From a virus (taxonomy: Duplodnaviria; Heunggongvirae; Uroviricota; Caudoviricetes), in the IMG/VR virus record IMGVR_UViG_2531839524_000004: 64,000 nucleotides of DNA. One strand, written 5' to 3'. Positions within the stretch are counted from its first letter, which is position 1; every line of letters starts with the position of its first letter. Both the position numbers and the translations under genes were made by a program. Of this stretch, positions 13,312-54,920 are shown piece by piece. A model generated the notes under the pieces. That model did no database searches, was not told the origin of the DNA, and saw only the letters and a list, made by a program, of their open reading frames with translations.

Positions 13312-13386
13312 GATGGTGTAGCTCAGCGGTAGAGCAGTTGGCTGTTAACCAACTGGTCGGTGGTTCGAATCCACCCACCATCGCCA
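13312..13386 (+). tRNA. tRNA-Asn (anticodon GTT)
   Basis: Hand-folded cloverleaf: acceptor GATGGTG/CACCATC, anticodon loop CTGTTAA, T-loop TTCGAAT, encoded CCA. Confidence 0.85.
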
Positions 13387-13391
13387 ATTTA

Positions 13392-13478
13392 GGGGAGTTA
13401 GTCCGTAGAGGTAGCGGTGTAGACTGTAAATCTACTGTCATGGCGACTCGGGTGGTTCGACTCCATCACTCCCCACCA
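13392..13478 (+). tRNA. tRNA-Tyr (anticodon GTA), long variable arm
   Basis: Acceptor GGGGAGT/ACTCCCC, anticodon loop CTGTAAA, long variable arm, encoded CCA. Confidence 0.8.
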
Positions 13479-13482
13479 AATT

Positions 13483-13558
13483 GCCGGTTTAGCTCAGTTG
13501 GTAGAGCGCCTGCCTTGTAAGCAGGATGTCAGCGGTTCGAGTCCGTTAACCGGCACCA
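13483..13558 (+). tRNA. tRNA-Thr (anticodon TGT)
   Basis: Acceptor GCCGGTT/AACCGGC, D-arm GCTCAGTTGGTAGAGC, anticodon loop CTTGTAA, T-loop TTCGAGT, CCA. Confidence 0.85.
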
Positions 13559-13775
13559 ACACAACAGGAAAGAGCATTGAAACCCGCCGAGACTGCCCTG
13601 TTTTAAGCGTAAGTCCGTGCAAACGTCATACAGTGCTCTTTTCGTTGTGGTTGATGCGCAGACTGATGCGCGGAAAGAAATGCCCCAGCGACACACGAGG
13701 CGAGTTCACACACTGCAATGCAGTCAGTAGCCGGGGTCGCTAAGCCGGAGATCAGTACCGGTAACCACAACAATT

Positions 13776-13862
13776 GGAGAGTAGGGAGCATGGTGCTCAA
13801 GCGGTCTTGAAAACCGTCCCATTGTGCAAACGATGATGGTTCGATTCCATTACTCTCCGCCA
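13776..13862 (+). tRNA. tRNA-Ser (anticodon TGA), long variable arm
   Basis: Acceptor GGAGAGT/ACTCTCC, anticodon loop CTTGAAA, long variable arm, T-loop TTCGATT, CCA; D-arm pairing slightly irregular. Confidence 0.7.
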
Positions 13863-39275: not shown

Positions 39276-41192
39276 ATGAAGTTTTTAAAGCTCCAGGTTG
39301 AGAATTTTATGGCTATCGCCAGCGCGGAGGTCGAGTTAGATCAGCGTGGTTTAGTGCTCATTCAGGGTGTTAATAGTGATGATAGTTCCGCATCAAGTAA
39401 TGGCTCTGGAAAGTCAACTCTAATGAATAGCCTGATGTGGTGTCTTTATGGCGAAACAGCTCATGGTGTGAAGGGGGACGATGTGTTGTCTACCGACCAT
39501 GAAAAGAACTGTCGTGTTGCAGTAACCATCGAGGATGAAGGCAAGAGATATGCGATCATTCGTCACCGTAAACACAAAGAGTTCAAAAATCGTCTTATCG
39601 TTCGTGGTGAAGACGGCGATATGACGAAAGGCAAAGATGCGCTGACGCAAGAGTTCGTCGAGCGTCTGATCGGTGCATCTAAAGAGGTTTTCATGGCTTC
39701 CATCTATGCGAGCCAAGAAGCTATGCCAGATTTACCTGGAATGTCCGACAAAAACCTCAAAACCATCGTAGAAGAAGCCGCTGGCGTTGACAGACTGACA
39801 CGCGCCTACGCTATTGCTCGTGAGCGAGCTAATGCAGCTGCCGCACGTATGGATGTGGTTAAAACCAAATTGGAGTCGACAATCTCGACCATTGAGGCAA
39901 CACAGTCAGAAATTGAGTCAGCGAAAGCCTCCTCTGAATCATGGGAGCAAGAGCGTTCTAAACGTTATGACGATGCCCTGGCTGGGCTGGCCAGTGCCGA
40001 AGTTGAGTTAACGGAAGTTGAACTTGAGATCCGCACTCTTCCCGAACAGATCCGTGATACCGAGAAGGCAATCGAAAGTGAGCGCAAAAAGTTAGCCTCA
40101 AAAGAAGAACATGACGCCAAGTTGCTCAAAGTTCGTGGTGCGATAACTGATATTCGGGCAAGCATCAAAGCTACAGAAAATAGTCAGGCTGATGCAATGA
40201 ACCGCGCGCGTAATTTTAAGACCAAAGCAGAAGAGGTTGGTACTAAAGTGGGATCACCATGCCCTACTTGTGGCAAAGCCTACTGCGAAGAAGATCTATC
40301 AACGGTGAAGGAGAATTTCATTGAACAAGCACGTCAGGAAATTGGTCAGGCGAAGACACTTGCAGAGGCAATGGCTAAACACAAAACGAATCTTGAGAAA
40401 GCGTTAAGCATTGAGTCTGCCCTTGTTAAAACGACACCTGATGTAACGGCTATCATTGCCCGGATTGAAGAGCTTACGAAACAACTCTCATCTTTGCGTC
40501 ATCGTGAGAAGGAGGTTGTTGCTATTGAGTCTCTTGTGACTCGTGCTCGTACTGAGGTCGATCGTATATCAAAAGAGATTAATCCGTTTATTGCTCTTAT
40601 CGCCAGACACGAAGATAACCTGGTATCCAGTAAGTCTACCTTCAAGTCCTTAAAAGATGAGTTGAAGGCTATTCAGGAACAAACGTTGCTATTGGAAAAA
40701 GCTCGTCAGGTCTACTCTCCTGCCGGGGTGCGTTCTCATATTTTGACGTCTGTTACGCCTTTCCTGAATACACGCACTGCCGAGTATCTCAATACGTTGT
40801 CTGACGGGAATATTACTGCTGAGTGGTCGACGATGGATGTCACTAAAAAAGGTGAGTATCGCGACAAATTCAACATTAGTGTGCAGAAGAAAGGTTCAAG
40901 TAAGTCGTTCCAGACCCTCTCTGGTGGTGAGAAGCGGAAGGTTCGCATTGCGTGTTCTTTGGCATTGCAGGATCTGGTTAGTAACCGGGCGAGTAAAAAC
41001 ATCGATTTGTTTATCGGCGACGAAATTGACGATGCACTCGATACAGCCGGTCTTGAACGCCTCATGGGTATTCTGGAGTCCAAAGCTCGCGAGCGAGGTA
41101 CTGTGCTGATTATCTCCCATAAAGAGATGAAGTCATGGTTCCGGGAAACTATTACGCTGGAAGTTAAAGAGGGGCGCAGCTATGTCGTTTAA
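39276..41192 (+). CDS. sbcC: SbcC/Rad50-like ATPase
   Basis: N-terminal Walker A NGSGKSTL, long coiled coil with CPTCG zinc hook, C-terminal signature and Walker B (LFIGDEIDDALD). Confidence 0.75.
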   Translation: MKFLKLQVENFMAIASAEVELDQRGLVLIQGVNSDDSSASSNGSGKSTLMNSLMWCLYGETAHGVKGDDVLSTDHEKNCRVAVTIEDEGKRYAIIRHRKHKEFKNRLIVRGEDGDMTKGKDALTQEFVERLIGASKEVFMASIYASQEAMPDLPGMSDKNLKTIVEEAAGVDRLTRAYAIARERANAAAARMDVVKTKLESTISTIEATQSEIESAKASSESWEQERSKRYDDALAGLASAEVELTEVELEIRTLPEQIRDTEKAIESERKKLASKEEHDAKLLKVRGAITDIRASIKATENSQADAMNRARNFKTKAEEVGTKVGSPCPTCGKAYCEEDLSTVKENFIEQARQEIGQAKTLAEAMAKHKTNLEKALSIESALVKTTPDVTAIIARIEELTKQLSSLRHREKEVVAIESLVTRARTEVDRISKEINPFIALIARHEDNLVSSKSTFKSLKDELKAIQEQTLLLEKARQVYSPAGVRSHILTSVTPFLNTRTAEYLNTLSDGNITAEWSTMDVTKKGEYRDKFNISVQKKGSSKSFQTLSGGEKRKVRIACSLALQDLVSNRASKNIDLFIGDEIDDALDTAGLERLMGILESKARERGTVLIISHKEMKSWFRETITLEVKEGRSYVV

Positions 41193-52094: not shown

Positions 52095-52688
52095 ATGATT
52101 GCAGCCGAAAAAATCAAACAGCGAAAGCGCGACAACTCTCTTCGTGACCTCTGGAGAACACCTGACTGGCTGTTTTCTGCCATTCAACGTTATCTTGGAG
52201 TGACATTTGATGTTGACGTTGCCTGCAACAAGGACAATGCAAAGCTGCCTAATTTCATAGGCGTTGAGCGTGATGCTTTGAAATCTGAATGGGGACAGCC
52301 AGGTACAATTGCCTTCCTCAATCCACCCTACTCCAAAATCTCCCCCTGGATTGATGCGGCTATACGTGAGCAGGCTCCCGGAGTTACAACAGTGATGCTA
52401 ATTCCTCAATCCCTAGATACAAAGTGGTATGAGCGTGCAACAGAGTGTGCGAATGAGACGATTATTCTGTCTGGTGGCCGCGTAGCGTTTGTCGAGCCTG
52501 ACGTAAATCTGGGTCAGGTAGAAGTAAACATCAACCCAGGTGGCAGTATGCTCGTTGTTTTTCGAGGATTCTGTCAGGACGCTGGGCACTCTATAAGCAA
52601 GATCCCTTTGGACGTCATGAAAAGTCTGGGAGGGTATGATCCTGCGAATGTGATCAGGAAAAAAAGACCATCAAAGAAGGCTGCTTAG
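52095..52688 (+). CDS. phage-type N6-adenine DNA methyltransferase (Dam-like)
   Basis: Catalytic motif FLNPPYS (DPPY/NPPY class) and small size (197 aa) typical of phage Dam family. Confidence 0.7.
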   Translation: MIAAEKIKQRKRDNSLRDLWRTPDWLFSAIQRYLGVTFDVDVACNKDNAKLPNFIGVERDALKSEWGQPGTIAFLNPPYSKISPWIDAAIREQAPGVTTVMLIPQSLDTKWYERATECANETIILSGGRVAFVEPDVNLGQVEVNINPGGSMLVVFRGFCQDAGHSISKIPLDVMKSLGGYDPANVIRKKRPSKKAA

Positions 52689-52708
52689 TTTGTTCTGGTG
52701 TCTGTAAT

Positions 52709-52768
52709 TAGCCTGCTTCTGTATATATAAATAACTACATATTAATTATTAATATACGGAAGAAGGCT
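52709..52768. repeat. second copy of AT-rich palindromic element
   Basis: AGCCTGCTTCTGTATATATAAATAA identical to 4320..4344; partner arm TTAATATACGGAAGAAGGCTG degenerate. Confidence 0.55.
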
Positions 52769-52873
52769 GTTTTGTATCAGAGACTCCAGACCTGAACATC
52801 ACTACAGAATCCACTAGAACCCCTTCCCAGACGCTTTAAAATCGATTTTATGAACCACTTTAAGGAAACCAAC

Positions 52874-53104
52874 ATGTCATACCCGACTAATGTCGTTGCG
52901 CTCGTAGAGAGCGATTTTCTGGCCCAGGCTCGTGAAATGATGAAAGATCGTGAGCAGGCTTTCAACTTGTACGAATGGGCAATTAAGTGCTTGCATCTTG
53001 GCGAGCATCGCGAACTTGTTGAACAGCTTTTAGGTGAGTTGATCAATGAGGTGTTTGCCTTGAATGTTCAACTACATGGTAGAGAAAATAATCAATCACA
53101 ATGA
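52874..53104 (+). CDS. hypothetical small protein
   Basis: 76 aa from ATG 52874 with AAGGAAACC RBS. Confidence 0.35.
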   Translation: MSYPTNVVALVESDFLAQAREMMKDREQAFNLYEWAIKCLHLGEHRELVEQLLGELINEVFALNVQLHGRENNQSQ

Positions 53105-53686
53105 TAGATAAGTACAAACTATTCATAAAGTGAATTGTAAGTGCTAAGATCTGATAGTTTCCAGTCGTAGACTGGAGACTCGACCTGATGGGTGGGGGTA
53201 AGCGTCACTGGCGTCAGGTTTAAAAAAGCTCACTACCAGCGTAGAACTGGTGCCGTTTAGGTGTCGGGGAAGGGGGAACCAAAGTGAGCAGAGACAAGGG
53301 TCACTTTATGATTGTCGAGTCTGGGGTGTTTCGAGAGGTTGAATCCAGTACTCCCCTTCATAAAGTGTGGGAAGATCTCGGTTCTGGGGTGCTGTCATCC
53401 ATAACTTCCCAAGTCTAAGCTGGCAGTAGACTTAGACCATAACTTTTCAGGTTATGAAACGACCAGGTTGGTGAGAGATTTTTATACTCACCTCCCTGGG
53501 AGAGTATTACCTGAAAAGACAACCTCTCACTTCGTTCGAGGTGAACTTCACTCACTTCGTTCGTTCAGTTCAGGTTTATAAAAACCTGTTCTGGGAAGTA
53601 ATTTGTTTATTTTAATAATTATTAACACGCACGCGTGTGCGCACGCGCGAGGAAAAATCGGCGCGGCGCTTGATTCAGGAGTTTAT

Positions 53687-54277
53687 ATGACGACGAAGAC
53701 ACCAGCCCGATCGCAAGCAAAAACTCGCAAAAAAGCCAAAAACAAAAATTCCCCCCGCACCAATCCCACAACGCCTGTCGTAGAGTTCAATCCCCAGCTT
53801 AAAACCGTGAAAATCTTTAGTGATGGCTCTTGCCTTAAAAATCCGGGTGGCCCGGGCGGTTACGGTATCGTTCTCCAGTATCGTGGTGAGGAACGCGAGT
53901 TCTCAGATGGTTTTCATAGCACCACCAATAACCGCATGGAGATGATGGGGGCACTTATCGGGCTGGAGCGTTTGAAATATCCATGCAACGTTATTTTGCA
54001 CTCTGATAGCCAGTATCTGAAAAACGGCATGACACAGTGGATGAAATGGTGGAAACGCAATGGATGGATGACTTCTGACAAAAAACCGGTAAAGAATGTT
54101 GATCTGTGGAAGCGTCTGGATGAGGCCGCAAGTCGACATAATGTTCGCTGGAAGTGGGTTAAAGGCCACGCCGGGCATCGTGAGAATGAAATATGCGATC
54201 GACTCGCGAAGATCGCAGCTTTTTCAGCAGCAGATATGCCTCACAAGAAAGATATTGGTTTTGTTTATAATAAGTAG
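53687..54277 (+). CDS. rnhA: ribonuclease HI with basic N-terminal extension
   Basis: [57 protein letters not shown] closely match RNase HI. Confidence 0.85.
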
Positions 54278-54425
54278 TAAGTAAGTGTTTACCTATCATT
54301 TTAAATCATGTATCTTATCGGCGTCAGGATGACAATGTGTCGGTAAGACACAGTTCCAGGATGGAACGAGAAAGGCGGCTGGCAATCGCCAGCCGCAACT
54401 CTTTCTGACACTGGATGGGGTCCAC

Positions 54426-54920
54426 ATGGCACGTCAAACCTATTTCACTTCTGCAACTAAACGTCCTCGTTCTTTACGTCAAATTTTGGCCGAATTATTT
54501 AGCGGTCGTGTTATGTCACGTCTTGATGAACTAGAGACTACCGTTCGGTTGCTGAATGAACGTTTAGATAATCAAGCGTCAGTTGTTGCGAACGTGGGGG
54601 CGATTGTTGCCTCTGGTTCTTCACGCGAAGCGAAAAGTACACGGCCTTTAGTGAAGGAGAAAAACAACAAGGACAGTTCGAATGGAAAATTTTCAAAGAA
54701 AGAGGCTGAAACCAATGGCCTACGTTCTCATTATAGTTTCACTGGCGACGGTAGCCGTTCCAGCCGGCCAGAGCCTTTTGATGCCGGATTCATCCATCAC
54801 CACACCTTCGTCGACGACAATTACCACCACTCCAGTGGAGCGTCCTGTCACTCTGGATGGGATGGCGGTGGATGCGATACCTCAAGTTCATCCAGTTACT
54901 CAGGATCATGCTGTGACTAA
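54426..54920 (+). CDS. hypothetical protein; 3' half frame-ambiguous with overlapping ORF 54715..54933
   Basis: N-terminal 85 aa look protein-like; C-terminal low-complexity Ser/Cys/Gly tail overlaps an alternative frame encoding a signal-peptide-like protein. Confidence 0.3.
   Translation: MARQTYFTSATKRPRSLRQILAELFSGRVMSRLDELETTVRLLNERLDNQASVVANVGAIVASGSSREAKSTRPLVKEKNNKDSSNGKFSKKEAETNGLRSHYSFTGDGSRSSRPEPFDAGFIHHHTFVDDNYHHSSGASCHSGWDGGGCDTSSSSSYSGSCCD

Follow-up and report, generated by a model that had tools for sequence, protein, structure and literature searches.

The 64,000-nucleotide stretch of DNA analyzed here (hereafter, the window) comes from the Caudoviricetes record IMGVR_UViG_2531839524_000004 of IMG/VR. 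Sequence comparison identifies it as an SSU5/pHCM2-type phage-plasmid, 99.5% identical to Escherichia phage CMS-2020a, ~98% identical to phage Cyrano of Escherichia coli LF82, and ~80% identical to Salmonella phage SSU5. At positions 53105 to 53686 lies a 582-bp gap in a plus-strand series of DNA metabolism genes, which run in the order dihydrofolate reductase, epsilon-like exonuclease, Dam-type methylase, a 76-amino-acid protein, the gap, and RNase HI. The replication and nucleotide metabolism module that holds the gap also contains a polynucleotide kinase (PNK) gene, and genes for a helicase, primase, ligase, DnaE, UvsY, a gp32-like single-stranded DNA-binding protein, and RecA lie upstream. 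The plasmid RepA gene (IncFIB replicon; CYRAN_63 in Cyrano) is also upstream, ~17 kb from the gap, and ParA is present and likewise far away. The 582-bp stretch occurs in 687 PLSDB plasmids from Klebsiella, Escherichia, Enterobacter, Salmonella, Citrobacter, and Cronobacter, nearly all of them non-mobilizable. We conclude that the gap is very probably the gene for a structured non-coding RNA of ~440 to 500 nt specific to SSU5/pHCM2-type phage-plasmids.

A prediction made earlier from the letters of the window alone had described the stretch as non-coding, GC-richer than its surroundings, rich in G tracts, and capable of long-range pairing, and had proposed either a structured RNA or a degraded remnant of an intron or gene. 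Its non-coding character and its G tracts were borne out; its GC content and long-range pairing were not. The stretch holds 17 overlapping GGG trinucleotides against 4.5 ± 3.0 per equal-sized tile of the window, a number that 0.9% of the tiles reach, and its GC skew of +0.15 stands at the 95th percentile of the tiles. Its GC content is 0.454 compared to 0.451 for the window, which is only the 46th percentile. The structured RNA turned out to be the well-founded half of the proposal, given the covariation, a plus-strand-favoring fold with a z-score of -4.5, a conserved promoter, and a discrete transcript, each described below.

Homologs from different genera were aligned with MAFFT, and the alignments contain hairpins that differ wholly in sequence and keep their pairing. 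RNAalifold predicts 147 base pairs from 13 copies, 32 of them with compensatory changes. More divergent copies were gathered with a two-block pattern in IMG/VR, from species-representative genomes, and through the linked small protein and its contigs. These copies form five clades and extend down to ~40% overall identity. Locus L096 (Logan SRR8137545) was left out of the alignments, as it carries C-to-T changes throughout and looks like an assembly of bisulfite-treated reads. Covariation was then counted in 22 representatives of the five clades over the pairs of the window's minimum-free-energy structure. Standard pairs occupy 89.1% of the alignment cells, compared to 36 to 49% when the 3' partners are slid. 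Pairs changed on both sides number 57, compared to 28.2 ± 3.4 in shuffled alignments (0/500 reach 57) and 15 to 27 in slid ones, counts to be read with the caveat that the sequences are related and the structure is derived from one of them.

Fold energies distinguish the strands as well. The plus strand of the window folds at -165.5 kcal/mol (z = -4.5) and the minus strand at -138.1 kcal/mol; the alignment folds at -237 on the plus strand, compared to -210 on the minus strand and -163 ± 7 for column shuffles. Some G-U pairs do not vary at all; at two positions of helix P1, for example, they are present in 22/22 copies.

The RNA extends over approximately 53157 to 53600 on the plus strand and comprises some ten helices, of which P1, P2, P3, P5, P6, P7, and P8/P9 are best supported. 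It begins in the minimum-free-energy fold with a 5' terminal hairpin at 53157-53179 (arms 53157-53166 and 53170-53179), the sequence of which is clade specific and the structure of which is kept. The local hairpin here, CCAGTC-GTA-GACTGG (53161-53175), is real, and every clade keeps a hairpin in this place with an entirely different sequence. Helix P1 (GACCUGAUGGGUGG / CACUGGCGUCAGGUU; 53182-53220) closes a G-rich apical loop, and its 15 pairs include 7 with changes on both sides and are formed in 96.6% of cells. The P2 domain (53228-53289) is closed by P2 itself (53228-53234 and 53283-53289), with compensatory changes in 4/7 pairs and pairing in 94% of cells; the domain holds the conserved motifs ACCAGCG and GGGGAAGGGGGAACCAAAG, and its internal helices are poorly supported. 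Helix P3 (UCACUUUAUGA / UCAUAAAGUGA; 53302-53367) has compensatory changes in 6/10 pairs, arisen independently in several clades, and encloses the more weakly supported P4 (53317-53325 with 53344-53353, plus 53330-53334 with 53339-53343). P5 (UGGGAAG / CUUCCCA) and P6 (53387-53391 and 53396-53400) share the segment 53368-53411 with a conserved internal loop, GAUCUCGGUUCU; they are paired in 100% and 99% of cells and have 3 and 2 compensatory pairs, respectively. Hairpin P7 (GUCUAAGCUG / CAGUAGACUUAGAC; 53413-53437) follows, compensatory in 7/10 pairs and paired in 99.5% of cells, and then the long irregular arm P8/P9 at 53443-53518 (53443-53475 with 53487-53518; 3 + 4 compensatory pairs, 92 to 94% of cells paired). 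The last hairpin (UCAGUUCAGG...CCUGUUCUGGG) lies at 53565-53594 and is followed by a conserved UCUGGGAAGUAA.

The long-range pairing proposed earlier, GACTCGAC with GTCGAGTC (CTCGAC/GTCGAG), has no covariation to support it; seven compensatory pairs place the CTCGACCTGA segment in a local helix with CGTCAGGTT instead. RNAalifold offered a further pairing, CCUCUC (53522-53528) with GAGA..GGU (53291-53301), which we rejected: it shows no compensatory change, and a local hairpin accounts for the conservation.

Conservation ahead of the first helix is poor apart from the promoter elements. In the window, these are a -35 element TTCATA (53122-53127), a TG dinucleotide (53142-53143), and a -10 element TAAGAT (53145-53150); the -35 and -10 elements are separated by a 17-bp spacer, and the whole spans 53122-53150 on the plus strand. 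Among 61 unique homologs, the -35 element reads TTnAnn, the spacer is 17 bp in 60/61, and the -10 element reads TAnnAT, mostly after TGn; bases between the elements diverge freely. TTnAnn, the 17-bp spacer, and TGnTAnnAT make up an extended -10 sigma-70 promoter, with a predicted transcription start at ~53156-53158, at the foot of the 5' hairpin. A generic promoter scan missed this site, as only 8/12 consensus positions match. Scans also revealed no canonical intrinsic terminator on the plus strand between 52914 and 54374 and no recognizable promoter between the RNA and RNase H. The Dam sequence GATC occurs both across the -10 element (TAAGATC, 53145-53151) and in the conserved internal loop GAUCUCGG at 53373-53376; the phage's Dam-type methylase gene is 0.5 kb upstream, and the promoter GATC is not kept in other clades.

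A published transcriptome indicates that the locus is expressed. The only feature annotated inside the RNA core is CYRAN_81 of phage Cyrano, a 44-codon open reading frame (ORF) at 53284-53418 labeled "hypothetical protein," and a study of the LF82 prophage lists it among the genes expressed in the lysogen (PMC9928086). In overnight LB culture, the normalized reads of its S1 table are 117 for CYRAN_81, 9.5 for the small gene upstream, and 8.4 for RNase H (PMC9928086). Across conditions the log2 values are 6.8 to 10.35 for CYRAN_81 and ~3 to 6 for each of the two neighbors, and the highest CYRAN_81 values are those of the 6-h macrophage and 1-h fresh-medium samples, with up to 10.3 in macrophages compared to ~5 for the flanking genes (PMC9928086). 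The signal of the RNA core in the lysogen is 12 to 40 times that of both flanking genes, including ~12 times the 76-amino-acid protein gene and ~14 times RNase H. The transcript at CYRAN_81 is a discrete unit that accumulates in the lysogen, and the transcription expected of a structured RNA gene is found. In the same table, the "hypothetical protein" CYRAN_43 (Cyrano 40268-40822) reaches 723 times the prophage background and is by far the top phage-plasmid feature in the lysogen; its ortholog lies at approximately 14.9 to 15.5 kb of the window on the minus strand, adjoining integrase and repressor genes.

CYRAN_81 does not behave as a protein-coding gene. Its ORF is intact in 40/61 and broken in 21/61 unique homologs, and its variable columns fall almost evenly on the three codon phases (29/26/31), with no codon-phase bias. 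A six-frame translation of 53090-53720 matched nothing in Pfam or PHROG, in agreement with the earlier claim that 53105-53686 has no credible ORF, and the search turned up no split or degraded protein gene. The protein annotation of CYRAN_81 is, judged from its homologs, wrong, and since the ORF is not conserved, the RNA-seq signal represents the RNA. That the stretch is a decayed gene or intron, or the gene for the small protein itself, is thus very improbable: a 44-codon ORF does exist and is annotated as a coding sequence, but its disrupted state, the absence of protein-family remnants and of intron models (Rfam, E ≤ 10), and a core conserved above the flanking genes refute this within the limits of the ORF, domain, and intron-model tests.

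The RNA matches no described family. Rfam 15 searched at E ≤ 10 over 52600-54500 returned at best spurious microRNA and hepatitis C virus models (E of 0.03 or worse, far below gathering), and the divergent copies L004, L091, L093, and L095 gave nothing either, so that the Rfam scan suggested earlier yields no relevant family. The unmatched models include RNase P, tmRNA, group I and II introns, GOLLD, ROOL, OLE, HEARO, RNAI, c4, and riboswitches. A retron msr-msd or DRT-type RNA is similarly unsupported, with no adjacent reverse transcriptase; the downstream gene is RNase HI only, and the neighbors vary. The label "Reverse Transcriptase 3" given to the RNase H gene in the Cyrano record is a domain-name artifact. 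The window contains no second copy of the RNA and no complementarity to it of 13 nt or more elsewhere in its 64 kb, only chance 12-mers. Literature searches on SSU5, pHCM2, and phage-plasmid RNAs found no description of the RNA, and the LF82 expression table is the only relevant item. The RNA is thus a new family, absent from Rfam 15 and the searchable literature.

Its distribution is narrow. A degenerate three-block pattern retrieved 56 metagenomic contigs, 56/56 of which are SSU5-like, and a search of species-representative genomes through the small protein added just 2 Kluyvera loci. The RNA family thus appears to be confined to SSU5-type elements of the Enterobacteriaceae, as far as these sequence searches reach. 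Comparison with orthologous loci shows the RNA core to be 88 to 95% identical across genera, compared to ~80% when the flanking genes are included. An SSU5-like relative, L095 (2745-3440; Logan SRR28417476), carries at this position another G-rich spacer, ~700 nt long, with no detectable similarity and an equally strong predicted fold (z = -4.85); after it come a long AT-rich run and two RNase H-like genes. This spacer may be an analogous RNA.

Near the 3' end, as the last-but-two element of the structured RNA, lies a hairpin at 53522-53542 with the stem ACCUC/GAGGU and the 11-nt loop UCACUUCGUUC. We refer to it as the origin-type hairpin for reasons given below. Its stem covaries within the SSU5 family, from ACCUC/GAGGU to CUCUC/GAGAG in L090. 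A second copy of CTCACTTCGTTCG follows 25 nt downstream at 53551-53563 and forms with the first a 13-nt direct repeat of two copies. The second copy is absent from clade 2. It can pair with GAGGUGA in an alternative helix (53534-53544 with 53552-53562; 3 compensatory pairs), which excludes the origin-type hairpin.

The hairpin includes the 17-mer CTCTCACTTCGTTCGAG (53524-53540), the most conserved of the 3' region, and we scanned IMG/VR for exact matches to it with one free position (CTCTCACTNCGTTCGAG). It occurs in at least 120 contigs, and most among the matches listed (loci L100-L176) are not SSU5-like. These matches include 38 non-SSU5 families, in 19 of which three or more further flanking bases are complementary, compared to 1/38 in the control; the unit is therefore a hairpin. 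From these sequences, we define the module as a predicted hairpin with a variable stem, CUC/GAG, and an 11-nt loop, UCACUNCGUUC.

In eleven families among the matches listed, the hairpin lies in sense orientation within a replication initiator gene, between the regions that encode the N- and C-terminal domains. The initiators are of the Phage_rep_O (2.5e-27), HTH_36, and DnaD-like or replisome-organizer kinds; their PHROG matches (1e-19 to 1e-69) read "replication initiation protein," "DnaD-like helicase loader," and "O-like," and one such gene is followed by a DnaB-like helicase gene. In most cases, translation of the hairpin gives x-L-T-(T/S)-F-E, where the flanking residues differ and the flanking nucleotides stay complementary; one phage reads it in another frame, and other copies are intergenic. 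Since complementarity is kept as residues and frame vary, selection acts on the nucleic acid. Direct repeats are present in the 90 nt upstream of the hairpin in 14/18 families, compared to 2/36 control windows, and the AT content just upstream is 0.58 compared to 0.47. Contigs L132, L102, L176, and L125 have two to four copies on one strand, L106, L110, and L133 have an intrinsic terminator downstream of the hairpin, and the largest hairpin family (L103 type) has no GenBank match. No mention of the exact hairpin sequence was found in the literature, and the module, shared with origins that lie inside the initiator genes of many phages, appears not to have been described.

Downstream of the structured domain the window has an AT-rich spacer of 27 bp (53598-53624), which reaches ~45 bp in relatives and keeps its composition, not its sequence. 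Then follows, at 53625-53657 on the plus strand, an alternating (CG/CA)n tract that ends in CGCGCGAGG (53644-53652) and a run of A (53653-53657). CGCGCGAGG and the A run are kept in all clades, including the most divergent copies (L093, L091, and clade 2), and the length of the tract varies. The GC-rich palindrome earlier noted near 53630 belongs to this alternating tract (53625-53649); it is present, and its length differs among homologs. Close relatives differ in the (CG/CA)n tract by multiples of short units, and it is shorter in pHCM2, a Salmonella Tennessee plasmid, and an Enterobacter plasmid; this variation suggests slippage or Z-DNA-prone behavior of the repeat sequence.

The two genes that border the element differ in their constancy. 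Directly upstream, the gene for the 76-amino-acid protein (52874-53104, plus strand; phrog_5343, function unassigned, PHROG match 7e-53) precedes the RNA in every locus examined. An AlphaFold model of this protein has three helices (pLDDT 81); a PDB fold search, Rop included, gave no match and revealed no recognizable RNA-binding fold, and Pfam gave only a sub-threshold match. The protein family is confined to SSU5-like elements. Downstream, the RNase HI gene (53687-54277, plus strand; Pfam RNase_H 9.8e-45), which encodes a Lys/Arg-rich N-terminal extension, is variable cargo outside the conserved element. RNase HI is found there in most members; DUF262, BetT, Tad2-like (anti-Thoeris type), or unknown genes are found in others, and its place is taken by other genes in L004, L009, L010, L012, L013, L088, L091, L094, L097, and L098. 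In L088, Gabija-like OLD (OLD-TOPRIM) and UvrD genes lie there on the opposite strand. Position ~53660-53690 and its equivalents in relatives constitute a cargo hotspot. Since the downstream gene varies, the RNA is the fixed left edge of a defense and anti-defense cargo hotspot, not a leader of RNase H. "Upstream of RNase H," as the stretch had been described, is thus accurate for this window, yet the neighbor varies among members, and the implied link to RNase H is wrong.

Other structures in the vicinity include an AT-rich hairpin with a perfect stem at 52705-52773 (arms 52710-52726 and 52752-52768), between the Dam-type methylase and 76-amino-acid protein genes, which gave a spurious microRNA match in Rfam and may be a terminator or operator. 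A GC-rich hairpin after RNase H (54375-54396; GCGGCTGGC-AATC-GCCAGCCGC) scores as terminator-like on both strands, and a weak, sub-threshold CsrB-like match lies just upstream of it at 54322-54367. Gathering-mode Rfam searches of 11 loci with the origin-type hairpin returned nothing relevant. A scan of the window for tRNA and tmRNA genes found only a four-tRNA cluster at 13312-13862 (Asn-GTT, Tyr-GTA, Thr-TGT, and Ser-TGA), where Cyrano has three.

Taken together, several features point to an RNA-dependent replication origin: the RNA is promoter driven and structured, it carries the origin-type hairpin, AT-rich and GC/purine sequences follow it, the locus lies in the replication module, and RNase HI is frequently adjacent. 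We favor, with a probability of roughly 40%, a cis-acting role of the RNA in DNA replication, as an origin that would work through RNA rather than through iterons and an initiator. Its analogs would be ColE1 RNA II, oriF and oriG of T4, and the mycobacteriophage RNA-based prophage origins, the last of which set a precedent for such origins being expressed in lysogens (PMC7157519). Transcription from the promoter would run through the structured domain and the origin-type hairpin and continue into the AT-rich block and the GC-rich/purine tract (CGCGCGAGG-A5), where the transcript might open the duplex or remain hybridized as an R-loop. RNase H, encoded by the phage next door in most members and by the host in the rest, would trim the hybrid to a primer, and the phage helicase, primase, and DnaE-type polymerase would then take over. 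It is possible, though doubtful, that SSU5-type phage-plasmids in this way carry a second, initiator-free origin driven by the 450-nt RNA, and that the terminal hairpin CUC-UCACUNCGUUC-GAG is an unrecognized origin module shared across unrelated phage families and hidden in the linker-coding part of their initiator genes.

Several observations weigh against an RNA-dependent origin. A RepA (IncFIB) replicon lies ~17 kb away, so that maintenance does not call for a second origin. Silence in the lysogen might be expected of a lytic origin, yet the RNA is abundant there, an expression pattern that fits a trans-acting RNA equally well; the LF82 reads are taken here without regard to strand. Many members have no RNase H. 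In the window, the hairpin is flanked by neither iterons nor an initiator ORF or domain, and the only repeat is the 13-nt direct repeat. No antisense RNA was found, in analyses that included no search aimed at antisense promoters, and the sole minus-strand promoter-like site (53163-53134) is directed away from the RNA. The cumulative GC skew has no turning point at the locus, an uninformative result given that all genes have the same direction. In L093, the most divergent copy, the hairpin loop is present only in a degenerate version. As to the hairpins in other phages, collection by an exact pattern means that their nucleotide identity is partly ascertained, and about half of the matches may be chance. 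A CGCGCG block was also considered as a regular partner of the hairpin and rejected, as it accompanies 3/38 unrelated families compared to 1/38 in the control, which is anecdotal.

The main rival is a non-coding RNA that acts in trans, as a regulator of lysogeny and lysis, a protein-sequestering or scaffold RNA (possibly with the 76-amino-acid protein), or a defense or anti-defense RNA of the accessory island that begins directly downstream. Such a role is possible, if somewhat less probable than one in replication. It would suit a stable, discrete lysogen transcript that is induced in fresh medium and macrophages, as well as a fold so large and elaborate that it exceeds the needs of a primer. 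Strict linkage to the small helical protein gene, the Gabija-like OLD/UvrD, Tad2-like, DUF262, and RNase H cargo of the adjoining slot, and the different, equally structured spacer (z = -4.85) in the same place in L095 are also consistent with it. However, the RNA has neither complementarity of at least 13 nt elsewhere in the 64-kb window nor similarity to an Rfam family, and the small protein has no recognizable RNA-binding fold. A trans-acting role also leaves the shared origin-type hairpin, the AT-rich block, and the CGCGCGAGG-A tract unexplained.

A function at the DNA level only is unlikely. Here, extruded or single-strand hairpins would serve as an origin, as the boundary of a recombination or insertion hotspot, or as a packaging-related site, and the transcript would be incidental. 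The occurrence of the hairpin module in coding DNA of other phages' initiator genes, the cargo boundary just downstream of the GC tract, and the DNA-repeat-like length variation of the alternating purine-pyrimidine tract are in line with this explanation. Invariant G-U pairs, a plus strand that folds 27 kcal/mol better than the minus strand, a conserved promoter set exactly one start-site distance before the first helix, and a transcript 12 to 40 times more abundant than its neighbors argue for a functional RNA instead.

Less likely still is a long structured 5' leader that controls the downstream gene by attenuation, processive antitermination, or a riboswitch-like mechanism. The lack of a recognizable promoter or canonical terminator between the RNA and RNase H and the mutually exclusive 3' helices (53522-53542 and 53534-53562) would be expected of a leader, but the downstream gene differs among members and is on the opposite strand in L088, the RNase H mRNA lies ~14-fold below the RNA, at background level, and no riboswitch or leader family matches.

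Phage-plasmids of the SSU5/pHCM2 type are common in clinical E. coli, Klebsiella, Enterobacter, and Salmonella, including S. Typhi, and carry resistance and defense cargo. The conserved, abundant, structured RNA is a new functional part of these elements that has been overlooked, and at least one curated record misannotates it as a protein; its strongest expression in one data set is inside macrophages. If an RNA-dependent origin is correct, it would explain the start of lytic or secondary replication and would provide a target for plasmid curing and new vector origins. The hairpin may also serve as a sequence marker for finding origins in uncharacterized phages.

We compared the element with known systems. 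Large structured RNAs such as GOLLD, ROOL, OLE, HEARO, and raiA similarly exceed 400 nt, possess many covarying helices, and occur in a phage or mobile-element context. In contrast, the RNA described here matches no covariance model at E ≤ 10 and is limited to one phage-plasmid lineage of the Enterobacteriaceae. The R-loop origins oriF and oriG of T4 and the mitochondrial LSP-CSBII region share with the proposed origin a promoter-driven primer transcript in an unwinding region and G runs such as GGGGAAGGGGG, and the window phage has a T4-like UvsY/gp32/RecA-type recombination module. However, those origins need no elaborate RNA fold, and the G runs here, which are not strictly conserved in clade 2, lie ~300 nt upstream of the AT-rich block.

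The origin-type hairpin provides the likeness to lambda-type origins. The classical lambda-type layout places iterons, an AT-rich stretch, and an inverted repeat within the initiator gene. Lambda's own inverted repeat has a different loop. The CUC-UCACUNCGUUC-GAG hairpin follows iteron-like repeats in the O-like, HTH_36, and DnaD-like initiator genes of other phages, and the window has an inverted repeat (53522-53542) near an AT-rich block (53598-53624). Unlike those copies, the hairpin of the window is non-coding, lacks iterons and an initiator gene, and forms the 3' end of a large structured RNA.

The RNA-based prophage origins of cluster A mycobacteriophages, which are expressed in the lysogen, adjoin parABS and take the place of RepA (Wetzel et al. 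2020; PMC7157519). The phage-plasmid resembles them as an extrachromosomal prophage with a lysogen-expressed non-coding RNA and a proposed RNA-dependent initiation. It differs in that its hosts belong to another phylum, its repA gene is present, and RepA and ParA are distant from the RNA.

The RNA II of ColE1/pMB1 is a primer transcript that works with RNase H and Pol I, whereas the phage-plasmid has a phage replisome (DnaE-type polymerase, helicase, and primase) and a RepA origin elsewhere, and its RNA has a predicted function only. The two share no sequence or covariance-model similarity, the Rfam RNAI model is unmatched, and no RNA I or Rop homolog was identified. In both, however, a promoter lies ~500 nt upstream of the actual or proposed start region and drives a long, structured, G-rich transcript that is expressed in the plasmid state, with an RNase H gene at hand and no initiator-binding iterons at the site.

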